Source of the DNA: a virus
Taxonomy: Duplodnaviria > Heunggongvirae > Uroviricota > Caudoviricetes
Reading direction: 5' to 3' (one strand)
Virus record (IMG/VR): IMGVR_UViG_2693429524_000013
Length of the DNA stretch: 13,512 bases
The position numbers and the translations under genes were made by a program. Positions 1 through 13,512 of the stretch are shown in pieces (positions within the stretch are counted from its first letter, which is position 1; each line of letters opens with the position of its first letter). The notes under the pieces were generated by a model, which was not told where the DNA came from, did no database searches, and saw nothing but the letters and a program-made list of their open reading frames with translations.

Positions 1-235
1 GCAGTGATGCACAAACCAGGCAACGATAAACAGGCTAACAGTGATAGCGGCGCTCAATCAGCGCACTAAATCCTAACCAGTCCGGGAAAGAGGCTGGCTC
101 TATCGACCGCTCATGCACGGGACAATGCATACCTGATAAAGGATTCTCACAAGGGACCAATCGCGAGAAAAGAAGTGGAAAGGGGCTGATTTGTGGTGTA
201 TCACTACGGCCTCAAAAGAACACTATTACCTCTTT

Positions 236-694
236 TCAACCTCTCCCCACATTTGACCAGTATTTGATTGCACCGATCAAATCATCATAGTGGCGCATTG
301 CATCATTGAAGCCTTTATAGCTTGCCCATTGTGGTGAAACTTTGTTATTGCTGAATTGCCCACTAATCAGGATAGTCTCCAGAATGTCGGCGTATCGCTT
401 GCCAATTCGCTTCCTGACGGCCTCAGAGCTTCCACCCTTTACGATTGCATTAATCAGGGCTTTTGTGTGTCTCAGGCTCTCATAGAGCATTGCAGCGTGG
501 GCAGATTCCATAAATGAGCGTTTAGGCAAATCACCCCACCCCTCAGAATGAATTGCTGCCAGTGTGGCGTAATTCAGGCCGCTATAGTGTTTCCCGTCAT
601 CCCAGCCAACCGCTACACCTTCCATCTGTGAGAGCTCTTTATGCAGCTTATCCATCATGCGCTTGTCTATGGTGCACCGGACTTTCGGACTCAT
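236..694 (-). CDS. phage virion morphogenesis protein, HK97 gp10-like head-tail joining / tail-completion family (152 aa)
   Basis: Its ATG overlaps the upstream stop (ATGA at 691-694), indicating translational coupling. The segment NYATLAAIHSEGWGDLPKRSFMESA resembles the YA..hEfG...P.RPF motif of HK97 gp10-type proteins. It sits in an operon with capsid genes. Family assignment is from memory only. Confidence 0.55.
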   Translation of the reverse strand: MSPKVRCTIDKRMMDKLHKELSQMEGVAVGWDDGKHYSGLNYATLAAIHSEGWGDLPKRSFMESAHAAMLYESLRHTKALINAIVKGGSSEAVRKRIGKRYADILETILISGQFSNNKVSPQWASYKGFNDAMRHYDDLIGAIKYWSNVGRG

Positions 695-1503
695 TTGTTG
701 ATCTCCGTGATGTCATCAAGCAACATGTTGGCCTTATCAATCATCGTTTCGTGGAACTCATTCGACACAACAGACTTATCACCTGCGGCAATCTTTCCCG
801 CTGCCTCTCCCTGTGCATATTCCCCGCGATGCTTAGCCCTGGTTGATTTCGTAGCAGCATTGCCAGCGTTACTACCCTCTTTAGCACTATTAACAGCACC
901 CTTTTGCTGTGTTTTGTTCACCTTCTTACTGTTAGTGAAAACTCCGGCATTTTCGACCATCTTCACCTTGAAGGTGCGGAATTCTTCAAAGGTGCAATCA
1001 ATAGTGATGCAGTCACCGGAGGAAGAGCTACGCTTAACTTCACATTTCGTCATGATGAAGTTCTCAAGGAGTCCGGCATCTTCACTCACCAGGCTAACAA
1101 GCTGGCGCTTGTCTCTCATTTCCATAAGTGCCTGAACAGCGGCAGCAGGGCGCATAGATTCACGGGGATTATCTGGATCAGTGTTCCGGTCGATGTAGTT
1201 CTCTTTCCGGATGATATGAGGAGAAGAGGTAATAATGCCCGTAAAGCTGACAGATTTATCTTTAATGACGGCATGGTCTGACATGGTGGTGCCATCCTCG
1301 ACCGCATAGCTCGATTTCTCAACAGGGAACGAATAGCTGACATCAGAGATAGAGTCAAAGAAGATAGCCACGTTATCGGTATAGTTGAAGCCATCCATTA
1401 TATTTTTGTTTTGTGAATATCCCCCACACATAACAGTGAATGCAGGAGATCTCGACTCAGCTTGTTTTGCAGCTGTCAGAGCATCATTAGCCATATTAAA
1501 CAT
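691..1503 (-). CDS. hypothetical virion structural protein with a Lys/Ala/Gly-rich C-terminal low-complexity tail (~270 aa from ATG 1503 or 1494; the track ORF extends to a TTG at 1611)
   Basis: Long minus-strand ORF coupled to the downstream gene. The 1611 start is a TTG with no SD. GGAGG lies just upstream of ATG 1503 and ATG 1494. The central segment SFPVEKSSYAVEDGTTMSDHAVIKDKSVSFTGII looks like a beta-rich tail/baseplate-type fold, but no family is recognised with certainty. Confidence 0.6.
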   Translation of the reverse strand: MFNMANDALTAAKQAESRSPAFTVMCGGYSQNKNIMDGFNYTDNVAIFFDSISDVSYSFPVEKSSYAVEDGTTMSDHAVIKDKSVSFTGIITSSPHIIRKENYIDRNTDPDNPRESMRPAAAVQALMEMRDKRQLVSLVSEDAGLLENFIMTKCEVKRSSSSGDCITIDCTFEEFRTFKVKMVENAGVFTNSKKVNKTQQKGAVNSAKEGSNAGNAATKSTRAKHRGEYAQGEAAGKIAAGDKSVVSNEFHETMIDKANMLLDDITEINK

Positions 1504-1699
1504 GCCTCCAAATTGGTCCACTTCTTTCGCTGGCTTAGCCAGGTGACTAAGGTCACCCCTTCGGGCGTGAGTGGATTTAGCTAAAGCTAAACCTGCAAAA
1601 GATGCAGGCAAAATAGAACTTATCGTTGCCCTGCTTAAAATCTGCAGAAAATACAGGGCAGTTATTCGTTAGAATCGCTTATAGCTCTTCCCGAGAGCG

Positions 1700-1951
1700 T
1701 TATTTTGCAAAACGATTATGGGCATTCAGGGCTTTTTTGCGGTCCTGTGCCTGTTTTCGTGCAATAAAATGTTCGAAAGTCTCGGCCCAGGTGCATTTAT
1801 TATATTCACGGTATTTATGCATAGCCTGGCGGCTAACGTCATAGCAGGCGGCAAATGTGGAGATACGCAGGAATTCCGGCAGATCCTCGTCATCGATATG
1901 GATAATATCAAAAGGCACGTCGTCACGGTCGCCGTATAAAACAATTTTCAT
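1700..1951 (-). CDS. small HTH DNA-binding protein (83 aa from ATG 1951; the track start at 1960 is a GTG)
   Basis: GAGGTG SD lies 6 nt upstream of ATG 1951. The segment ISTFAACYDVSRQAMHKY reads as helix-turn-helix. Its position between the capsid gene and the next structural gene is unusual. Confidence 0.6.
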   Translation of the reverse strand: MKIVLYGDRDDVPFDIIHIDDEDLPEFLRISTFAACYDVSRQAMHKYREYNKCTWAETFEHFIARKQAQDRKKALNAHNRFAK

Positions 1952-1983
1952 AAAAGACACCTCAAAAACTTAAGACGGGGATA

Positions 1984-2036
1984 ATAAAAAAAGGGAAGAG
2001 GGAAAGACCTATCCCCGATCTCTCACCTCTTCCCTT
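1984..2036 (-). terminator. strong rho-independent terminator after the major capsid gene
   Basis: Perfect 11-bp stem AAGGGAAGAGG (1991-2001) / CCTCTTCCCTT (2026-2036). On the minus strand it is followed by a run of 7 U (plus-strand A run 1986-1992). The plus side has TGCTTTTATTT, so it may act bidirectionally. Confidence 0.8.
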
Positions 2037-2047
2037 TGCTTTTATTT

Positions 2048-2062
2048 GGCCTTCGAAGAAGG
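2048..2062 (-). repeat. copy of the CCYTC-NNN-GARGG-CC mini-hairpin, immediately 3' of the capsid stop codon
   Basis: The minus strand reads CCTTCTTCGAAGGCC. This matches 14 of 15 positions of 6650-6664 (CCTTCTACGAAGGCC). Confidence 0.6.
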
Positions 2063-2065
2063 ACC

Positions 2066-3112
2066 TTATTTAGCCTTGGCTTTTGCCAGAGCAGCGGCGG
2101 CGGAGTTACTAACACTCACTTTAACCACAACTTCAGGCATCATGTTCATGAAAGCATAAGAGGATTCAATGAAGATTTCTCGTTTACCTCTGGACTCTTC
2201 CATATACATGAAAGCTTCACGTGCAGCGCCGTTTGCAAGCTTCAGGTTGCGAGCGCAAGGGCCGAAAAATTGAGTATAAACGCCCACCATATCGCCTAAC
2301 GCATGTGGCTGGAATTGTGGGACCAGATAAGCAGTATTCTCTGGCAGACTATCCATTTGCACCACACGCAGGGCTAAGCCCGGAATGCGGAAGGTCGGGA
2401 AGCCCGGCAGAATATCCTCAGGGAACATCAGGCCTTTGTCAGTGATATTTTGATTGCCGAACAACAGCACCTTACGGAGCAGTTCATCAGTCTGAATTGC
2501 AGCAAAGAGTTCAGCACGGCAGAACAGGGTGAAACCACGCAGAGCACGAACGACACCACGCTGTTTAACCTTGCTCAGTGCAACCAGGTCCTGCAGCTGT
2601 TTAAGGATATCTTTAGCTAAATCCACTTCTGAAGTGGTTTGCTGTGCGCCCAGCAGTTCGCACACATTCAGTTCTTTACCCTTGGTGAGGATAATTTTGT
2701 TCTCAAAGAGAGCAAGCTGGCGTGCTTCTTCGTGGGTCTGGCGTAAGCCTTCGCCAAGCTGAATAACACGACGAGCGGTTACAGACTCTAAATTCTCTTC
2801 GGAATCTTTGCCCGGAACGCGGATACCCTGCCAGTCAGAAGGATAAATAGCACTTGATGCGGCAGTGAATGCCATATCACCCGTGCCCGTTTCACGCTCA
2901 TCTGCGGTAATGGTCGCCATCTGTTCACCGTAGCGAGGATACTGACCGAAAGCAGATTGTTTCACCTGGCGAACTTTGTCATATTCAAATTTAAAGGTAT
3001 TGCACAGAGCAGTAGTGTTGAAGATATCCATTGCTGAAATAATCTGGTTATCCAGCGGGATGTCTTTAATCAGACCACACAGATCGCGAACTTCGAATTC
3101 TTTCTTAGCCAT
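2066..3112 (-). CDS. major capsid protein, lambda gpE-like family (348 aa from ATG 3112)
   Basis: AAGGAGG SD lies 6 nt upstream of ATG 3112; the track start at 3118 is a TTG. Size (~350 aa), position directly after a decoration-protein gene, and overall sequence character match the phage major capsid protein E family. A strong terminator lies downstream. Confidence 0.8.
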   Translation of the reverse strand: MAKKEFEVRDLCGLIKDIPLDNQIISAMDIFNTTALCNTFKFEYDKVRQVKQSAFGQYPRYGEQMATITADERETGTGDMAFTAASSAIYPSDWQGIRVPGKDSEENLESVTARRVIQLGEGLRQTHEEARQLALFENKIILTKGKELNVCELLGAQQTTSEVDLAKDILKQLQDLVALSKVKQRGVVRALRGFTLFCRAELFAAIQTDELLRKVLLFGNQNITDKGLMFPEDILPGFPTFRIPGLALRVVQMDSLPENTAYLVPQFQPHALGDMVGVYTQFFGPCARNLKLANGAAREAFMYMEESRGKREIFIESSYAFMNMMPEVVVKVSVSNSAAAALAKAKAK

Positions 3113-3123
3113 CTTCAACCTCC

Positions 3124-3459
3124 TTATTGTGCAACACGCAAATCGCCATTGCTGGCAGCGATAACAGCGGCTAAGCCGTCTTTATCCACGTAGGCCGGAT
3201 TGATGTAGCAACCTTTGTTCGCAACAACGATAAAAGCGTCACCAACCTCAGCACGTTCTACAACCAGCAGCGGAGTTTTATCTGTGTGCGTTGCTTTAAC
3301 GAAGGTCTCAACCTCGCCAGCCTCAGTAACCACAACAACAGTGCCAGCCGGAATCTCAGCTTTAACTTTGTTTTTAATCTCAACGTCGCGAATACTAAAT
3401 TGCTCATCTGCGGCGTATGAAATGATGTGTCCGCGTGTGCGGATAGTCATATCTCTCAT
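3124..3459 (-). CDS. head decoration (capsid-stabilising) protein, gpD-like / DUF2190-like (111 aa)
   Basis: 111 aa beta-rich protein encoded immediately upstream of the gpE-like capsid gene, matching the lambda D-E order. AGGTGA SD precedes ATG 3459. The segment LLVVERAEVGDAFIVVANKGCYINPAYV resembles decoration-protein cores. Confidence 0.6.
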   Translation of the reverse strand: MRDMTIRTRGHIISYAADEQFSIRDVEIKNKVKAEIPAGTVVVVTEAGEVETFVKATHTDKTPLLVVERAEVGDAFIVVANKGCYINPAYVDKDGLAAVIAASNGDLRVAQ

Positions 3460-3584
3460 TTGATCACCTGCGATTTAAATTAACTCCCCTCAAAGAGTTC
3501 CGGTATAACCTCTCAAACCGCGACAGGCTCGGGCCGAAAAGTTATGCCGGAAATCTAAAGGGAAATTGATACAAGGAAAGGGAG

Positions 3585-3614
3585 ATAGCCCCGCACCGTC
3601 CAAGCGGGGGCTAT
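3585..3614 (-). terminator. GC-rich stem-loop in the leader of the capsid operon (possible attenuator)
   Basis: ATAGCCCCGC (3585-3594) pairs with GCGGGGGCTAT (3604-3614) with one bulge. On the minus strand it is followed by CUCCCUUUCCUUG, which is only moderately U-rich. Confidence 0.3.
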
Positions 3615-3787
3615 TCCATATGGGGAAAACCAACAACAGTTGGCTGATAGTTCACAGTATGGTTACGGTTACTAGAGAGCACTATCACGAAAGGCACTCC
3701 CCCGAATCAGTTCAGGCTGCGGTCACATCAGCGGGGAAATACCTTTCGGGATAGCTACCCACACAGAAAACCCGCAAAAGAAAACTG

Positions 3788-4195: not shown

Positions 4196-4213
4196 AAATC
4201 AACTTCTCGCAAA
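4196..4213 (+). repeat. 18-nt motif AAATCAACTTCTCGCAAA, copy 1
   Basis: Identical to 4739-4756. It ends exactly 11 nt before ATG 4225. Confidence 0.85.
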
Positions 4214-4224
4214 AGGTGATAGTT

Positions 4225-4347
4225 ATGGGTATCAAGAACAGTGCCAGCGCATGGCAAAAGGCCAGGTTTCATCACCCACACATTGTTAAGGCAATTGAGG
4301 TGGTTGGAGTGTTAGCCCTGATGTTAGCTCTGTGTGTGGAGGTGTGA
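4225..4347 (+). CDS. 40-aa small membrane peptide (MGIKNSASAWQKARFHHPHIVKAIEVVGVLALMLALCVEV)
   Basis: Not in the ORF track because it is under 60 aa. AGGTGA SD lies 7 nt upstream. It has a hydrophobic C-terminal helix. Its stop is followed 1 nt later by another SD-led ATG (4349, 22 codons). Confidence 0.45.
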   Translation: MGIKNSASAWQKARFHHPHIVKAIEVVGVLALMLALCVEV

Positions 4348-4738: not shown

Positions 4739-4756
4739 AAATCAACTTCTCGCAAA
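4739..4756 (+). repeat. 18-nt motif AAATCAACTTCTCGCAAA, copy 2
   Basis: Identical to 4196-4213. It ends exactly 11 nt before ATG 4768. Confidence 0.85.
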
Positions 4757-4767
4757 GGGGTACCACT

Positions 4768-5289
4768 ATGTTATTCCAGAAAGACAAAGAATCAGTAAAT
4801 AAAAGGCTTTTTAAAGAACTGGTAAAAATGTTCTTTCAGTACACTGCAGCGTTTTTGATAGCCGGGCCTTGGTTAATGGCTATCTGTTTTTACCCTGCTA
4901 CCTTGTTTATTGGCAGTAGCAAGTTCGGCGATGGCCCGTTTCATGTGGATATTGGTTTTATAGATTCTCTCCTGATCCGTCCTATAAATGCTGTTCTCAA
5001 TGCTTTCTACTTCCCAACTAGTCTAGAGGGGTGGGCGGTAACCTGGGGTGTTTTAGGCTTAGCATATGTATATTGGTTGGTTGGCTTTTTGTGGGGTGCA
5101 ATCTGTGCTCTCCTCGATATTGATACAGGATCAAGCCGTAGGAGTAGTGGTAATAATAGCGGAGCGGGTGTATATGCACACGTAGGTACCAGAGGGGTAA
5201 GTATCACCGCAGGTACCCGATTCGCTGGCGGCTGGCTGAGTATAGGCAAACGCGGCGTTAGTTGGAGAAAAAGCAAAAAACTGTTCTGA
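4768..5289 (+). CDS. integral membrane protein (173 aa) with a Gly/Ser/Arg-rich C-terminal tail reminiscent of DUF4236
   Basis: Two long hydrophobic segments are present: FFQYTAAFLIAGPWLMAICFYPATLFI and WAVTWGVLGLAYVYWLVGFLWGAICALL. The tail GTRGVSITAGTRFAGGWLSIGKRGVSWRK resembles DUF4236. A clean terminator follows. Confidence 0.75.
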   Translation: MLFQKDKESVNKRLFKELVKMFFQYTAAFLIAGPWLMAICFYPATLFIGSSKFGDGPFHVDIGFIDSLLIRPINAVLNAFYFPTSLEGWAVTWGVLGLAYVYWLVGFLWGAICALLDIDTGSSRRSSGNNSGAGVYAHVGTRGVSITAGTRFAGGWLSIGKRGVSWRKSKKLF

Positions 5290-5297
5290 CCTACCAG

Positions 5298-5318
5298 GGG
5301 GCCATCACGGCCCCTTTT
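5298..5318 (+). terminator. rho-independent terminator of the accessory cassette
   Basis: GGGGCC (5298-5303), loop ATCAC, GGCCCC (5309-5314), then TTTT. Confidence 0.8.
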
Positions 5319-5342
5319 CTATTTCCAGTCGCTATAGCTCCT

Positions 5343-5414
5343 GAGTAATTCCACTCCCTGAGGTCGTGATCAATTCCACACCCTACCCCCTGATCAATTA
5401 ACCCCTATTTAATG
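5343..5414. repeat. three ~24-bp direct repeats (TGATCAATTCCAC-type)
   Basis: AATTCCAC occurs at 5347-5354 and 5372-5379. TGATCAATT occurs at 5367-5375 and 5391-5399. A related 17-mer CCCCTGATCA(A/T)TTAACC occurs at 5387-5403 and 6284-6300. Confidence 0.6.
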
Positions 5415-5446
5415 GGTATTTAATGCCTATTTATTGATTTAATCCG
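5406..5446. repeat. AT-rich 11-bp phased repeats (TATTTAATG x3-4), resembling a DNA-unwinding element
   Basis: TATTTAATG at 5406-5414 and 5417-5425, TATTTATTG at 5428-5436, ATTTAATCC at 5438-5446. The period is 11 bp. Confidence 0.55.
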
Positions 5447-5514
5447 TTTTATGCCACAACCGCCCGGTTGACAGAGTAAGAGAGAGGGTGTAACCCTTTT
5501 TCGTAATACTAATG

Positions 5515-5530
5515 AAATCAATAAGTTAGC
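5515..5530 (+). repeat. 16-nt motif AAATCAATAAGTTAGC, copy 1 (matches IHF consensus WATCAANNNNTTR)
   Basis: Identical 16-mer at 13259-13274. The core AATCAATAAGTTA fits WATCAA-N4-TTR. Confidence 0.6.
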
Positions 5531-5584
5531 TTAATAGGCCTTTTCTCTATTTTTGTCAAATTTAACATACCCTAAAAAACTGCA

Positions 5585-5618
5585 AAATCTGGCTGCAAGA
5601 TTATCTGCAGCTGGATTT
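5585..5618 (+). other. 34-nt imperfect hairpin
   Basis: AAATCTGGCTGCA pairs with TGCAGCTGGATTT. There are 13 pairs, including two G-T pairs that are wobble only if the plus strand is read as RNA. Confidence 0.4.
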
Positions 5619-6520
5619 CTTACACCTCATTTTGTGGTATCACCCTGACTAGTTTGTGCATAAATTGAACAGTTTTTAACATTTCCTCTTCACCTGGTAA
5701 CCACACAAAAAGCTAAAAACGAGGCACAGATAATCTTAGAGGCCTATTTTCTTGTTATCACTCTGGAAACGTCGTAGAAGTGATTTTGATGAAAGGCGAC
5801 CTACCCTATTACACCCCCATTTTTTGTTATCACAATTGCATCCTGTGTGGCTATATGGCTATGTGCTGAAAGCGGTCTCGGGTGTGGGTGTCAGAAATAT
5901 CCATTAGCGGTATTTGAGCTTATGGGTAACTCGTCTGAGGTGCCAGGCAGGCGCTCCCCTACCTCCCTTTTTTCTTCTAACAATTCTCAAATATCACACC
6001 ACTGCCCACCACGTTGCTATTATGTTAATTCTTAAGCTTTGCTGTATGTTGTGCACATTATTTATTCAGGTGGCTGTACGTAAATTCTGTGCCCACTGAT
6101 CATGATTTTTAAATCAGATTTTGTAGTGCGGTTTCTTAGTGCTGATAAGATCTATTATGTTAAATGCAATTTTCCCAACCCTTCAAATCAATGACTTACA
6201 TGTAAGCATGCACTAACACCACACACAGCACATTAGACGTATAGATGGCTATATCCCACATATTTGATTGTTTTGTAGTCATTCCCCTGATCATTTAACC
6301 AGTATAGTTTGTTATCTGCAGACCACAAAATCGGAATTTACATCTGATTAACATAATCTGTTAGCATGATCACCATTACCCACACAACAATAACCCCATG
6401 TAAGCCTCTTCAGGCAATTTATCGGCGTGTTGGTGTGAACAGTCTTTCATGTTCTTTATGTATCAGTTGTCCTGTGTGGTGATTTGGTGGACTGCCCCAG
6501 GGGCCATACTTATGATGCCC

Positions 6521-6559
6521 GGTCAACATAGCTGTTGATAAAATCAACGGGTGTTGACC
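6521..6559. promoter_or_regulatory. twin palindromic operator-like sites
   Basis: TCAACA-tagc-TGTTGA (6523-6538) and TCAAC-gggt-GTTGA (6544-6557), with centres 20 bp apart. Outer arms GGTCAACA and TGTTGACC also pair. Confidence 0.45.
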
Positions 6560-6632
6560 TGCATATTTCCCACACATGAGAGGAAATCAGAGCAAAGAGA
6601 GAGGAGAGAGGTTTGTTAGTCACATATGGTGA

Positions 6633-6664
6633 TTTGAGCTCATCTCAAACCTTCTACGAAGGCC
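6633..6664 (+). repeat. two-hairpin module, copy A
   Basis: TTTGAG-ctcat-CTCAAA (6633-6649) abuts CCTTC-TAC-GAAGG (6650-6662), followed by CC. The 5' flank is TCACATATG. Confidence 0.65.
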
Positions 6665-6719
6665 TTTGCTAGTCAAAATCAAGTCACATTAGAGTCAAAT
6701 CAGATGCAATCAATCCCCC

Positions 6720-7051
6720 ACCTGTTGGGATTTCCCACATGTTCAACCATACACAGGAGCTAACCTGTTGGGATTTCCTACAACCCCTTTCAGTCATACT
6801 CAGGCACCACACCCCGGTAAATATTTCCCTACTACCCCGGAGAATTTCTCCGCACTACCTGTAAAGAATTTTCACACCTGTGTGTTTATACAATCATACT
6901 CTCCTGTTTTGCAGTCATTGCACCCATGATACACAGCCCTAACCTGTAAAATATTTTTACTACCCCGCCAATAATACGGCCCATACCTGTAAAATATTTT
7001 TACTACTACCTGTCAAAATCTTTTACTACTACCTGTAAAAATATTTGACAC
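6720..7051 (+). repeat. array of nine ~21-23 bp iterons, consensus ACCTGTAAAATATTTTTAC(TAC); candidate replication origin or centromere
   Basis: Units start at 6720, 6763, 6813, 6836, 6857, 6942, 6985, 7008 and 7031. The last three abut with exact 23-bp phasing. Each unit has an internal dyad. Confidence 0.8.
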
Positions 7052-7080
7052 TAATAGATAAAGTAATAGACCACACAATA

Positions 7081-7118
7081 GATCCCCCTAACCCCCCAGG
7101 GGGGAATGGGGAGGGATC
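7081..7118. repeat. G/C palindrome GATCCC...CCCCCC-A-GGGGGG...GGGATC followed by G-tracts
   Basis: C6-A-G6 lies at 7092-7104. Outer arms are GATCCC (7081-7086) and GGGATC (7113-7118). Downstream G-tracts (G6, G4, G3, G4) fit a loose G-quadruplex pattern. Confidence 0.6.
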
Positions 7119-7167
7119 AGAGAGTGGGGAAGGTTTTCTAAGGGAAAAGCTTAACCCACAAATGAAA

Positions 7168-7196
7168 GCCTAAAGAGCATTAGCGACTCTTTAGGC
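7168..7196 (-). terminator. 10-bp perfect hairpin, terminator-like on the minus strand
   Basis: GCCTAAAGAG (7168-7177) pairs with CTCTTTAGGC (7187-7196) across a 9-nt loop. The minus strand continues UUUCAUUUG. There is no U run on the plus side. Confidence 0.45.
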
Positions 7197-7208
7197 AATC
7201 TGTGTGTG

Positions 7209-7243
7209 GGGTGACAATGTATTCCATACATGACACGTCACCC
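7209..7243. other. nested hairpin
   Basis: Outer stem GGGTGAC (7209-7215) pairs with GTCACCC (7237-7243). The inner hairpin is ATGTAT-tcc-ATACAT (7217-7231). Confidence 0.5.
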
Positions 7244-7271
7244 TGCTCACATGTGTGGTCCACTTCGTGGA

Positions 7272-7310
7272 TTTGAGTTCACTCCGTAACTCAAACCCTC
7301 TACGAGGGCC
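7272..7310 (+). repeat. two-hairpin module, copy B (compensatory changes relative to copy A)
   Basis: TTTGAGTT-cactccgt-AACTCAAA (7272-7295) abuts CCCTC-TAC-GAGGG (7296-7308), followed by CC. It is preceded by CCAC-ttc-GTGG (7260-7270) and the flank TCACATGTG. Confidence 0.65.
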
Positions 7311-7356
7311 TTGTGTGGGGAGCGTAGTGCGATAGCACGTAGCTATATAATGTGGA

Positions 7357-7390
7357 GTCCGGATAAGAGACTTCTGTTTCCAATCCGGAC
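7357..7390. other. 8-bp perfect hairpin with an 18-nt loop
   Basis: GTCCGGAT (7357-7364) pairs with ATCCGGAC (7383-7390). Confidence 0.5.
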
Positions 7391-7410
7391 CGTTTAAGCG
7401 AGTGGTTTCT

Positions 7411-7436
7411 CGCGCGCGTGCACGCACACATATATA
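7411..7436. repeat. 26-nt perfectly alternating pyrimidine/purine tract (Z-DNA-prone)
   Basis: CGCGCGCGTGCACGCACACATATATA. It contains the 10-bp palindrome GCGTGCACGC (7416-7425). Confidence 0.7.
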
Positions 7437-7461
7437 AAGGATACACTCATAAATCGAAAAT

Positions 7462-7480
7462 AAGGCCCCTAAATGGCCTT
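7462..7480 (-). terminator. hairpin, terminator-like on the minus strand
   Basis: AAGGCC-cctaaat-GGCCTT. The minus strand continues AUUUUCGAUUU. Confidence 0.4.
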
Positions 7481-7616
7481 CTGGCTGCATTAACTAGTTT
7501 GAGTAGTGTAATTGCATTACCTGATGCTCAAATCGCGTTGTAGGGCCTCTTATGATGTTTGAGTTTAACACCCTCCAAAGTTTTAACAAAAAGTGCTCTC
7601 CCTCCATTGTGGGCCA

Positions 7617-7646
7617 TTGACAATCTTATTGCATAAATGCTATAAG
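7617..7646 (+). promoter_or_regulatory. strong sigma70 promoter P1 (rightward)
   Basis: TTGACA (7617-7622), 18-nt spacer, TATAAG (7641-7646), with TGc extended -10. The -35 context is TTGACAAT. Confidence 0.6.
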
Positions 7647-7744
7647 TTATTCTGTTTTTGACACGGTAGGGGACATTAATAATGCTTACCCCTTTGCTGT
7701 GGACTTGTTTGTACCTATAGCTCGCCTAAATGATAATGATTCCC

Positions 7745-7774
7745 ATTGACAATTGGTTGTCAATATGATAAGAT
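7745..7774 (+). promoter_or_regulatory. sigma70 promoter P2 (rightward) with an overlapping 20-bp palindromic operator
   Basis: TTGACA (7746-7751), 17-nt spacer, TAAGAT (7769-7774), with TGa extended -10. The operator ATTGACAA-ttgg-TTGTCAAT spans 7745-7764. Confidence 0.6.
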
Positions 7775-7936
7775 TATAGATAGTGGGAGAAACAGATCCG
7801 GAGGTCAACGTGGAACTGAGCGACGCTATAGCGATCATCAACCTGGCTGTAATGTGGTGCGGTGTTGCCTACATAGCCGGAGTAACTGCAATCGACAACC
7901 TTGAAGAAAAAATGATAGATAAATACAAAAAGATTG

Positions 7937-7965
7937 TTGACAATCTCGCAAATAGCTGATAAAAT
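7937..7965 (+). promoter_or_regulatory. strong sigma70 promoter P3 (rightward)
   Basis: TTGACA (7937-7942), 17-nt spacer, TAAAAT (7960-7965), with TGa extended -10. The spacer contains TCTCGCAAA (7944-7952), the core of the 18-nt motif. Confidence 0.7.
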
Positions 7966-8016
7966 ATAAAGCATAGGGTAATTCTCATCATAGTGAATTT
8001 TCCTTTAATGAACTGG

Positions 8017-8044
8017 CGGGAGCTATTAGTTCCCGTTTCTTTTT
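8017..8044 (+). terminator. rho-independent terminator/attenuator between P3 and the first early gene
   Basis: CGGGA (8017-8021), 9-nt loop, TCCCG (8031-8035), then TTTCTTTTT. It lies ~50-70 nt downstream of the predicted P3 start and 44 nt upstream of ATG 8088. Confidence 0.6.
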
Positions 8045-8087
8045 AACCCTATATCGCACAGGCGGTGAGCTAACAGGAGATTGAATC

Positions 8088-8297
8088 ATGGCTAAAACCG
8101 GACCGATAAGCCAGCTGGTAAACTGGACTACTGACGAAATCGTCGAGAACGTGCTTAAAGGTAACTTTCGCAAAACTTCCGTTTATGCATTTATTCGAAA
8201 ACATAAAGGAGAATATCCACACATTGAAGCGGCAATAGAAAGATTAAACTTTATTAAACTTGAGCGCCAGCTGGAAAGATATAAACATCTGATTTAA
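8088..8297 (+). CDS. small early protein (69 aa), possible Cro/excisionase-like DNA-binding protein
   Basis: AGGAG SD lies 8 nt upstream. It is the first gene after the tandem promoters. The function call is weak. Confidence 0.7.
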   Translation: MAKTGPISQLVNWTTDEIVENVLKGNFRKTSVYAFIRKHKGEYPHIEAAIERLNFIKLERQLERYKHLI

Positions 8298-8317: not shown

Positions 8318-9202
8318 ATGGCAAACAATAAACTGGGGGCACATTTCACCCCCATTTTTAAACGTTTTATCAAGTATAATTTTGAAAATCCAATTGCAAA
8401 AACTACAACAGGCAAAGAGAGATTTAATTTAAATGCGACGGAATTGATAATTTACGGGGAAATGGTTGGCTTTCATTTAAACGGCAAAGAAATATTCATC
8501 TCGGAGCAGACCTTAGCAGATGATTGGGATTTTTCAAGACCAACGATTATTAAAGCTATTAAATCTCTAGTAAATGCTGGGATTATTTCTAAAGATAACC
8601 GGAAAGGCAAATCTAACATTTACAAACTGTTAATTACACCTGAGCAGTTTGATAAAATGTGCGATGAGCAGGGTATTAAAACCTTAGACAGTGTGGGAGA
8701 CAGCAAAGAGGCACCTGCTACACAGGCCCAAGATAATCAACAGGAAGCCCCAAAACAAGCCACACAGCAGCCTGAAAAGCCCGAGGCAATGCAATCCCCT
8801 TCCCAACCTAAAAAAGAACACAGAGAACGCCGTAGAGACGCTGGCAAACGTGAAATAGATGAGCACGGTTATCCGATTCTGACAAGCGATGAAATGAATG
8901 CCAGATATAAAGTAATTCAGGCCGCATTTAAAGATCAGAAGAGAATTAAATTATCTGAATTGCGTGATACATTTTACGGGCCGGAGGTGATGGATAAAAT
9001 TAAAGGCACTATTCCTGATAAAATCTGGAAAGAGGAAGATTACTGGCACCTGACAGAGCAGGCCCTTAAGGTAGCTCAACACGTGGTTAAAAGAGGCAAA
9101 TCAATTATTATTGATTCTATTAGTCATGGCTATGATGCACCGAAAGAAAGGTTGTGGAACAACTGCAAGCTTGTAAAAGGCGAATTGACAATTACAAAAT
9201 AA
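8318..9202 (+). CDS. replication initiator candidate: N-terminal winged-HTH (lambda O / replisome-organiser-like), Gln/Pro-rich linker, C-terminal domain (294 aa)
   Basis: The N-terminal segment ISEQTLADDWDFSRPTIIKAIKSLVNAGIISKDNRKGKSNIYKL is a classic wHTH of phage/plasmid initiators. A low-complexity linker APATQAQDNQQEAPKQATQQPEKPEAMQSPSQPKK follows. The three-part architecture resembles lambda O. Confidence 0.6.
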   Translation: MANNKLGAHFTPIFKRFIKYNFENPIAKTTTGKERFNLNATELIIYGEMVGFHLNGKEIFISEQTLADDWDFSRPTIIKAIKSLVNAGIISKDNRKGKSNIYKLLITPEQFDKMCDEQGIKTLDSVGDSKEAPATQAQDNQQEAPKQATQQPEKPEAMQSPSQPKKEHRERRRDAGKREIDEHGYPILTSDEMNARYKVIQAAFKDQKRIKLSELRDTFYGPEVMDKIKGTIPDKIWKEEDYWHLTEQALKVAQHVVKRGKSIIIDSISHGYDAPKERLWNNCKLVKGELTITK

Positions 9203-13247: not shown

Positions 13248-13258
13248 TATTGTGATCT

Positions 13259-13274
13259 AAATCAATAAGTTAGC
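13259..13274 (+). repeat. 16-nt motif AAATCAATAAGTTAGC, copy 2 (IHF-consensus match)
   Basis: Identical to 5515-5530. It lies 12 nt after the tape measure stop. Both copies are preceded by TAATA(C/T). Confidence 0.6.
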
Positions 13275-13296
13275 CTGACCGGATAAACTCCAGGCA

Positions 13297-13329
13297 AGAA
13301 AAAAGCCCCTAAGTGTTAACAAAGGGGCT
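13297..13329 (-). terminator. rho-independent terminator for a leftward (convergent) transcript
   Basis: AGCCCCT (13304-13310) pairs with AGGGGCT (13323-13329) across a 12-nt loop. The minus strand continues UUUUUUCUU. The plus side has no U run. Confidence 0.65.
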
Positions 13330-13350
13330 CTTCTCCGGTATCCTTTTGAT

Positions 13351-13466
13351 GCGGGGCAAAACCTGCTAACAAAAATCAACCTCTCGCGAGACTAATGTTA
13401 GCAGGTTGCCGGAAGGTAAGTCAACTCCGGTCTATAAACCTTAAAGCGACTATAAAATTGCCCCGC
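13351..13466 (-). ncRNA. candidate structured RNA (three helices) ending at the 13297-13329 terminator; strand and function uncertain
   Basis: Outer 9-bp helix: GCGGGGCAA (13351-13359) with TTGCCCCGC (13458-13466). Perfect 12-bp helix: AACCTGCTAACA (13360-13371) with TGTTAGCAGGTT (13396-13407). Third helix: CCGGA (13409-13413) with TCCGG (13426-13430). Confidence 0.3.
13373..13390 (+). repeat. 18-nt motif, diverged copy 3 (AAATCAACCTCTCGCGAG, 15/18)
   Basis: It lies in the 24-nt loop of the 12-bp hairpin. The core has become the 10-bp palindrome TCTCGCGAGA. Confidence 0.6.
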
Positions 13467-13512
13467 CAATTGTGATGATCCGACCTTTGAGGCGGGTCCG
13501 GTGCCCAGGGGG

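Follow-up and report, generated by a model that had tools for sequence, protein, structure and literature searches.

A conserved multi-helix module beside the tape measure gene of a satellite-like enterobacterial plasmid, predicted to form a large structured RNA

What lies beyond the tape measure gene at the end of the viral record IMGVR_UViG_2693429524_000013, a stretch of 13,512 nucleotides (nt) analysed here in full and called the window? An earlier note on positions 13248-13512 listed a 16-mer matching the consensus of integration host factor (IHF), a terminator hairpin, a 116-nt element with three helices and a loop motif, a duplicated CTATAAA and a copy of a palindrome, all of which we find where it placed them. 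It took the element for a ~170-nt minus-strand RNA with its own terminator or, alternatively, for a DNA site. Our analysis confirms the observation and supports that interpretation in part: the element is most likely read on the plus strand, and as part of a much larger conserved module.

Anatomy and conservation of the module

The minimum-energy fold of 13351-13466 consists of a 9-bp closing helix (13351-59/13458-66), a perfect 12-bp helix (13360-71/13396-407) and a 5-bp helix (13409-13/13426-30) with the loop TAAGTCAAC. The 24-nt loop of the 12-bp helix carries AACCTCTCGCG and is the sole place of TCTCGCGAGA in the window, and the tail of the element carries TATAAACC and GACTATAAA, with CTATAAA directly readable twice (13432-38 and 13450-56). 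At -41.6 kcal/mol (z = -5.5) the fold is matched in stability by none of 200 shuffles. Sister plasmids are 97-99% identical in this region, where the inner one or two pairs of the closing helix vary, and this variation is too shallow for testing the helices. A divergent counterpart, again of exactly 116 nt, is carried by L027, a metagenome contig of 5.6 kb; its connector protein and that of the window share 50% identity. The helices compare as follows:

Closing helix: GCTGATA/TATCAGC in L027; GCGGGGC/GCCCCGC in the window
Long hairpin: GCTGTTAG (26 nt) CTAACAGC in L027; AACCTGCTAACA (24 nt) TGTTAGCAGGTT in the window
Short hairpin: CCGC (..TAAGTCAAGT) GCGG in L027; CCGGA (..TAAGTCAAC) TCCGG in the window

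Between the two lineages, four of seven closing-helix pairs are changed on both sides, all eight compared pairs of the long hairpin are flipped with the orientation of AACCTCTCGCG in the loop unchanged, and the short hairpin also differs on both sides. Kept as sequence in L027 are the loop motifs AACCTCTCGCG and TAAGTCAA and, in the tail, TATAAACC and GACTATAAA; conservation at the sequence level extends to AACCUCUCGCG and UAAGUCAA in the loops, to the tail and to a CAA linker leading to the next helix, P1. RNAfold applied to L027 alone gives the same architecture. By these comparisons the multi-helix anatomy is a real, conserved and selected structure, since all three helices persist in L027 through compensating changes; the support for this domain comes from only two to three independent lineages.

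In a further relative, L021, the tape measure and connector genes are about 95-97% identical to their window counterparts, but the module is very different. L021 retains the short hairpin as AGAGAG (AAAGTCAA) CTCTCT and has CAACTTCTCGCC directly after a minus-oriented terminator. The alpha-type islands, integrated relatives described below, have two hairpins in the corresponding region, S1 with 16 bp and S2 with 5 bp. Compensating changes are seen in both, and the hairpins may be homologous to the window helices, as suggested by two strings in common, GCTAACA...TGTTAGC and "hairpin plus TCTAWAAAC". Further relatives of the plasmid lineage were scarce: a protein search of viral contigs with the 152-amino-acid (aa) gene found none, a metagenome scan found four, of which only L021 was divergent, and protein homology searches yielded L027 and otherwise true myophage contigs without the module. 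A scan of viral contigs for AACCTCTCGCG-N15-45-TAAGTCAA gave eight matches, all in unrelated sequence, where by our own estimate about 13 would be expected by chance.

The element does not stand alone at the end of the locus. It is the first domain of a ~395-nt module that crosses the window boundary and runs to about position 233. The 613 bases around 13248-13512 are found with 94-99% identity in seven E. coli plasmid records, six of them 13.3-13.7 kb long and the seventh 39.6 kb with three copies. In homologous plasmids, which RefSeq annotates as circular, the sequence continues through the position of the window end (...CCCAGGGGG-T-GCAGTGATG...); in NZ_CP178698.1 it reads ...GGTGCCCAGGGGG-T-GCAGTGATGCAC..., which is the window end, one extra T and the window start. 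Since its homologues are continuous there, the window represents a whole circular plasmid of ~13.5 kb that was cut arbitrarily. The extra T at the 13512/1 junction is present in all sister plasmids (CCCAGGGGG-T-GCAGTG) and may be a base lost from the window at linearisation or a real variant.

Across this junction, at about 13466..13512 plus 1..233, lies a multi-helix core of ~280 nt with nine helix segments, in which P1 closes a multi-helix junction and a P7/P8 domain follows. The parts of the module are:

13351..13466, plus strand (assigned from adjacency to the core): 116-nt 5' domain with closing, 12-bp and 5-bp helices and tail; z = -5.5
13466..13512, plus strand: start of the core, with the P1 5' strand (13470-13481), hairpin P2 (13482-85/13495-98) and the start of P3 (13502-05), placed from the contiguous homologue and the P1 complementarity matrix
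within 1..233, plus strand: 5' part of the remaining core, with P3 (GCA-GTGA-TGC, 1-10; GGCA, 19-22), GATAAAC and P5 (77-82/92-97)
within 1..233, plus strand: middle part, with P6 (113-117/126-130), GATAAA and the P1 3' strand (141-152)
within 1..233, plus strand: 3' part, with P7 (182-187/208-213), P8 (193-198/202-207) and a CTATT tail

The CAA linker between element and P1 is common to the window and L027, whose P1 (TTTGAGATGATG/CATCATTTCGAA) holds two G·U pairs on the plus strand. A covariance model of the core, R1, scores 111.5 bits (E = 1e-27) on the contiguous homologue L001 (11130-11411) and 99.3 bits on window positions 1-233, where the 5' end is cut by the window boundary. It recovers the core in every island and plasmid locus tested, on the strand that has the sense of the tRNA or of the tape measure gene. 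The five sequence types compared were the island consensus, L017/L024, the short L023 and the plasmid, with L021 and L027 added later; they have helix positions in common and not helix sequences, as P1 illustrates:

Window: 5' TTGTGATGATCC (13470-81), 3' GGATTCTCACAA (141-152)
L014: 5' TTAACCGTTC, 3' GAGCGGTTAA
L018: 5' CACTCATTTGTTC, 3' GAGCGAATGAGTG
L024: 5' CAGATTGATCATAC, 3' GTGTGATCCATCTG
L017: 5' TTAGTGA, 3' TCACTAA

When every 5' strand is set against every 3' strand, the complementarity matrix is strongly diagonal (9.0 for the window vs at most 5.5 between types; 11 for L024 vs at most 6). An alignment made with MAFFT and fitted to no structure (A1; nine helix segments, 48 pairs) has 88.7% of its cells paired, compared with 30-41% when partners are slid. 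In it, 22 of the 48 pairs change on both sides vs 8.7±2.1 in shuffles, a level reached in none of 500, and the covariation score is 0.206 vs at most 0.059 in controls. In an alignment fitted to the model (A2) the number of pairs changed on both sides rises to 32 of 48, vs 16.3±2.3 in shuffles and 6-13 with slid partners. Covariation, one of the checks that the earlier note had named, supports the helices of both the core and the 116-nt domain. Judged by sequence comparison, both thus carry compensating changes beyond controls, the generic mark of a conserved structured RNA. The Rfam search, another of those checks, returned no catalogued family: with the 4227 models of Rfam 15, including ROOL, GOLLD, C4, the countertranscript RNAs (ctRNAs) and int-alpA, nothing reached the gathering threshold in the window, L001 or the island modules, and the island module L014 gave no match even at E ≤ 1.

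The closest likeness is one of kind only. ROOL and GOLLD are large structured RNAs of phages and prophages, and like them the module comprises several hundred nt with many covarying helices, in phage-related elements and often near tRNA genes. As with ROOL and GOLLD, the neighbouring genes reveal no function. The present module differs from them in matching neither Rfam model, in being shorter (~395 nt) and in residing in satellite-like elements of Enterobacteriaceae instead of Firmicutes or other prophages.

Two short sequences recur in and around the core. The palindrome CCCAGGGG occurs at 6496, 7095 and 13504, vs 0.38 occurrences expected in the window; because the window end is arbitrary, the terminal CCCAGGGGG sits inside core helix P3. 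The octamer TCGCGAGA is found in the large loop of the element (13384-13391), at 168-175 between P1 and P7, and in the P3 hairpin of L017, the copy of strain E2348/69.

The folded strand and the predicted RNA

Read on the plus strand, the core helices contain 30 G·U and five A·C appositions, and the island 5' hairpins S1 and S2 contain 23 and two. All five polymorphisms in P1 of the island consensus are transitions that preserve pairing on the plus strand only. The core count was taken from a hand table of helix strands drawn from the plus-strand reading, which introduces some bias; the within-type polymorphisms, whose helix ends are fixed, escape it. The wobble asymmetry and the P1 transitions therefore identify the plus strand as the folded strand of the core. 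The GTGA and GCGA tetraloops and the multi-branch architecture fit RNA better than extruded DNA.

On this basis we favour, with moderate confidence, a single predicted noncoding RNA of ~395 nt, structured and read from the plus strand from about 13351..13512 to about 233, with the 116-nt element as its 5' domain. Domain and core would share one transcript. Read-through transcription of the tape measure operon would produce it, or it would begin at TTAACA(13316-21)-17-TATCCT(13339-44), a weak promoter-like match whose predicted start, about 13351, coincides with the first base of the closing helix. Read-through is equally possible because the hairpin upstream of the element lacks a U-run on the plus strand. 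This hairpin is:

13297..13336, minus strand: GC-rich hairpin, predicted minus-strand intrinsic terminator, with stem 13304-13310/13323-13329 and a loop that contains TTAACA; assigned from fold energies

The U-run falls on the minus strand because an A-run precedes the hairpin. A 7-bp GC-rich stem, extended to 14 pairs with its flanks, is followed by UUUUUUCUU on the minus strand and by CUCUUCUCC on the plus strand, and folding gives -25.3 kcal/mol (z = -4.2) for minus vs -17.9 kcal/mol (z = -2.6) for plus. The earlier note's minus-strand terminator is thus borne out, the sequence having the stem-loop and U-run expected of a Rho-independent terminator; a simple terminator scan missed it because the loop exceeds 8 nt. 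It would stop transcription of the convergent structural operon before the tape measure gene is reached. In the MAFFT alignment the hairpin falls opposite the 5' part of S1 from the alpha-type islands.

The conserved single-stranded loops would be the working surfaces of the RNA. The large loop (13372-13395) holds a 16/21 copy of a motif found in two leaders:

4196..4216, plus strand: AAATCAACTTCTCGCAAA motif, first copy, directly before a Shine-Dalgarno sequence and the ATG at 4226
4739..4759, plus strand: second copy, immediately 5' of a Shine-Dalgarno sequence and the ATG at 4768 (173-aa open reading frame, ORF)

All copies of this motif, TCAAC(C/T)TCTCGC, have the same sense on the plus strand, and the predicted RNA contains a weaker second box, GTCAACTC. 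Because the copies share their sense and two adjoin ribosome-binding sites, we infer that the RNA would act as a decoy or titrator, its large loop competing with the 4196 and 4739 leaders for a common binding partner. The mechanism would resemble that of titrating RNAs of the CsrB/RsmZ type, in which a hairpin-loop motif also occurs beside target ribosome-binding sites. The likeness is an analogy of mechanism and not of membership, as there are at most two loop copies here instead of many and the motif is not GGA. The 11-mers common to an island module and the rest of the same island were only chance matches of 11-13 nt and the attachment-site (att) repeat; with no such motif pairs in the islands, the leader-motif link is specific to the plasmid lineage. 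Weaker copies in the same sense also occur at 3477-3494 (AAATTAACTCCCCTCAAA, just before the minus-strand operon starts) and at 236-250 (TTCAACCTCTCCCC, at the end of the 236..694 gene).

Several observations weigh against a single plus-strand RNA. All pairs inside the 116-nt element are Watson-Crick in both the window and L027, so that with no wobble pair its plus strand is assigned only from the CAA-linked core and the plus-strand hairpins of the islands. Its minus strand folds slightly better (-49.0 vs -41.6 kcal/mol in the window, -33.6 vs -30.8 in L027), and pair eight of the closing helix is A·C in most sister plasmids, which would be G·U if the minus strand were folded. A minus-strand promoter geometry is seen again in three lineages. 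Promoter-like matches within the module, on which one of the proposed starts depends, occur at chance frequency, and no plus-strand terminator is evident past the core in this plasmid. The 116-nt domain is restricted to the plasmid lineage, the islands having other 5' domains, and the decoy step builds on a single 16/21 similarity with a chance expectation of about 0.03.

Some of these points belong to the alternative that survives best, a small minus-strand RNA inside the element, acting alone or antisense to the plus-strand RNA as a sense/antisense pair, which we regard as unlikely while giving it real weight. Such an RNA could start at about 13388 from TTGACT(13424-13419)-18-TGcTAACAT(13400-13395), giving a ~95-nt transcript with CGCGAGAGGUUGAUUU, a complement of the leader motif at 4196 and 4739, as its 5' end, or at about 13442 from ATCACA-16-TATAGT, giving a ~150-nt transcript with both hairpins. 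It would end at the 13297-13329 terminator and repress the two motif genes by pairing beside their ribosome-binding sites, or could pair with the 5' domain of the plus-strand RNA as ColE1 RNA I does with RNA II. A promoter scan detected both sites, and the strong minus-strand terminator keeps its position in the window, L021 and L027. The loop TAAGTCAA reads as TTGACT on the minus strand in all three. At 16-18 nt past it come the -10-like hexamers TAACAT (window) and TAGTAT (L027), both with TGn, and CACACT (L021). About 7 nt beyond the hexamer lies GCGAGA(G/A)GTT, the antisense of the conserved loop motif, with the minus-strand terminator next. The second site recurs as ATC(A/T)CA-16/17-TATAGT in the window and L027, with TATAGT a 5/6 match, and the best pairing of the antisense loop away from its own locus is with the 4739 leader, at -24.6 kcal/mol vs a background of -9.7±3.1.

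Neither minus-strand transcript, however, holds both strands of the closing helix, and the shorter one also lacks half of the 12-bp helix. A minus-strand RNA alone therefore cannot explain the closing helix or the full 12-bp helix, whose compensating changes involve strands outside the transcript. The plus strand is the folded one in the adjoining core and in the 5' hairpins of the islands, the motif copies all share plus-strand sense, the L021 -10 element matches at only 3/6 positions, and the minus-strand promoter-like matches are likewise at chance frequency. The sole Rfam resemblance is a terminator-like match to ctRNA_p42d (23.6 bits vs a threshold of 50). The arrangement recalls plasmid sense/antisense pairs such as ColE1 RNA II/RNA I, R1 CopT/CopA and the ctRNAs, in that a structured RNA has 5' stem-loops that a short terminated countertranscript could cover. 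It departs from them in that more than 4 kb separate it from Rep (8318..9202) and the iterons, no predicted countertranscript has complete hairpins and the ctRNA_p42d match covers the terminator only. Of the earlier note's ~170-nt minus-strand RNA, then, the terminator stands, whereas the readable strand is plus.

Integrated relatives and the IHF-like 16-mer

The plus-strand RNA reading draws on relatives outside the plasmid. A 37-nt stretch of the core (window 69-105) matched a plasmid-borne island of Klebsiella, two E. coli chromosomes and four IMG/VR contigs, and an exact-pattern scan of one genome per species added Citrobacter, Pseudocitrobacter, Enterobacter, Kluyvera and Phytobacter; by the covariance model, islands flanked by tRNA genes carry the core in six enterobacterial genera. 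Every integrated copy of the module lies directly 3' of a tRNA-Leu, -Thr or -Gly gene, or of its 3' fragment, in the same orientation. The order is tRNA, IHF-like motif, about 150-200 nt of variable sequence, a ~250-nt core and variable cargo on the same strand; farther along come a small recombinase, further genes and, at the far end, an integrase. The island L006 spans about 13.9 kb between copies of a 17-nt repeat of the tRNA-Gly end and carries the same gene trio as the plasmid, a capsid homologue, a tape measure protein and a Dit-like protein. The shared layout and this trio make the plasmid and the islands one family. The leuX island of the enteropathogenic E. coli (EPEC) reference strain E2348/69 carries the module. 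No consistent sigma-70 promoter was found in the island modules, where matches are at chance level.

The integrated relatives measure ~14-15 kb and occupy tRNA-Leu, -Thr and -Gly genes. The slot after the module (L017, L018, L023, L024, L025, L026) holds two restriction-modification systems, a DUF4145 gene and an ImmA/IrrE-family protein, and Kiwa and AbiTii genes occur elsewhere in the L017, L018 and L023-L026 islands; the slot behaves like a defence hotspot. A small basic ORF of ~45-49 aa (...KIHARKFL.T.EG..WLE.K...) lies downstream of the core on the same strand in L021 (~3478-3624), L025 (9204-9335) and L003 (6467-6595), and in L021 a plus-strand terminator follows it. As an obligatory partner of the module it was rejected, being absent from the window and most islands.

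The IHF-like motif that adjoins the tRNA in the islands is also present in the window, between the tape measure gene and the terminator:

13259..13274, no strand: IHF-consensus 16-mer TAAATCAATAAGTTAG, identified by consensus match; a DNA-level motif conserved in the family

The core consensus WATCAANNNNTTR is matched by AATCAATAAGTTA at 13260-13272. The window contains four matches to the IHF consensus vs 0.98 expected, a number reached by three of 200 shuffles. The exact 16-mer AAATCAATAAGTTAGC recurs at 5514-5529, with some similarity in the preceding ~10 nt, and both copies fit the IHF consensus; the second copy lies upstream of the iterons, within the large noncoding region. The island L004 has an identical 16-mer after its tRNA-Thr 3' fragment, and other islands have variants after the tRNA end, so that the motif noticed in the earlier note proves to be conserved in the family and, in integrated relatives, placed ~10-30 nt from the tRNA-derived core, directly after the tRNA 3' end. 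It is kept as sequence and not as structure.

From its sequence context the 16-mer is best read as a separate, predicted DNA-level site, inherited from the attachment-site arm of integrated relatives. It resembles an arm with an IHF site, such as H' of phage lambda attP, in that it adjoins a tRNA-derived core in those relatives; it differs in that the plasmid has neither an annotated integrase gene nor a tRNA-like core, and in that the module beyond it behaves as a folded single strand and not as arm-type protein sites. An attachment site has two marks, an integrase next to it and a core that repeats the tRNA 3' end exactly; the islands show both and the plasmid shows neither.

The possibility that the whole region is an IHF-organised double-stranded DNA site, be it a cos/pac packaging site in common with a helper phage or an attachment arm that is a relic or still active, is to our mind improbable. 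It would account for the conserved 16-mer, its place beside the tRNA core and its duplication at 5514, and satellites need a packaging site. A blastn search of 50,697 phage records, however, gave no match to the plasmid or island modules other than a chance one of 37 nt to an Acinetobacter phage gene, which leaves the shared-cos idea without support, with the proviso that short sites could escape such a search and the helper is not identified. Compensating changes in long-range and local helices are unexpected for protein-binding duplex DNA, and a purely double-stranded site, the earlier note's second proposal, leaves them unexplained; the plasmid has neither an annotated integrase nor, beside the 16-mer, a tRNA-like core. 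The DNA-site reading probably holds for the 16-mer itself.

That the region merely serves the convergent minus-strand operon (3459..236) as a long 3' untranslated region and terminator, with no function of its own, is also improbable: the 236..694 gene does end 440 nt before the only strong minus-strand terminator, the nearer candidate (about 178..153) being weak, but the module covaries in islands with wholly different flanks, a tRNA upstream and variable cargo downstream, both on the plus strand, and the wobble pairs point to that strand too. The earlier note had foreseen a minus-strand gene just right of the window end, and there is one (236..694); the helices are conserved nonetheless.

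The plasmid and its family

The stretch studied is the left half of a 500-nt intergenic region (13248..13512 plus 1..235), flanked on the left by the tape measure gene and on the right by the convergent 152-aa gene on the minus strand. The main genes and repeats of the plasmid are:

11145..13247, plus strand: tape measure protein gene (ORF; PF20155 TMP_3, phrog_5255, E = 6e-154), its stop forming the left edge of the intergenic region
236..694, minus strand: connector/tail-completion (Neck1-like) gene (phrog_222, E = 8e-29), the right edge
691..1611, minus strand: Dit-like protein gene
2066..3118, minus strand: major-head-protein (capsid) homologue gene
8318..9202: replication initiator (Rep) gene
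about 6850-7050 (6854-7049): iteron-like repeats of 22-23 nt

The earlier note's statement that no tail genes follow the tape measure gene does not hold once the circle is closed, as 236..694 and 691..1611 follow across the junction on the opposite strand, within a convergent structural operon that spans 3459..236. RefSeq annotation of homologous plasmids likewise shows a ~550-nt gap after the tape measure gene and, past it, convergent genes for a hypothetical protein and a "phage baseplate protein". One of the records, NZ_CP043822.1 (39,610 bp), is a RefSeq "plasmid" in which the element stands three times in tandem, either as a concatemer or through an artefact of assembly.

The ten largest ORFs scanned and the RefSeq annotation of two homologous plasmids include no terminase, portal or integrase. 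In its predicted gene content the element looks like a phage satellite that replicates as a plasmid. Like satellites with homologues of helper structural genes (SaPIbov5 with Ccm, and the capsid-forming phage-inducible chromosomal islands, PICIs), it is ~13.5 kb long and has a capsid homologue and an incomplete set of virion genes; unlike them, it carries tape measure, Dit-like and connector genes, and the family exists both as a Rep/iteron plasmid and as a tRNA-integrated island. Neither the RNA nor the satellite family turned up in the literature searched.

Among phages, the connector protein (236-694, minus strand) has its nearest homologues, at 41-49% identity, in ~137-kb myophages of the Vequintavirinae type (rV5-like) and in related modules of the PhiTE/E217 type, where they sit in head-tail connector gene blocks. 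This homology suggests the kind of helper phage, which may be a Vequintavirinae-type myophage.

Window positions 5290-8088 form ~2.8 kb without a long ORF and contain iteron-like repeats (ACTACCTGTAAAA.ATTTT at 6854, 6982, 7005 and 7028), several inverted repeats and the palindromes GCCCCAGGGGC (6494-6504) and CCCCCCAGGGGGG (7092-7104); this is probably the origin region. Comparable gene-free stretches of 1-2 kb occur in the islands.

These data allow us to propose, tentatively and at somewhat less than even odds, that an uncatalogued class of RNA of ~350-450 nt is a hallmark of an undescribed family of enterobacterial satellites, comprising Rep/iteron plasmids and islands with defence cargo, probably parasites of Vequintavirinae-type phages, in whose life cycle the RNA has a role. 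That role would be, for example, in early-gene regulation, helper sensing or packaging. If confirmed, a new conserved RNA of several hundred nt would join the short list of large noncoding RNAs of bacteria and phages, and it would be tied to tractable hosts, the 13-kb plasmids of sequenced E. coli isolates and the leuX island of EPEC E2348/69. The RNA would also mark a satellite-like family that seems to lie outside the reach of current satellite finders; its position in the islands, between the tRNA site and the cargo slot, would be a handy anchor for locating them, for which the covariance model can be used directly.

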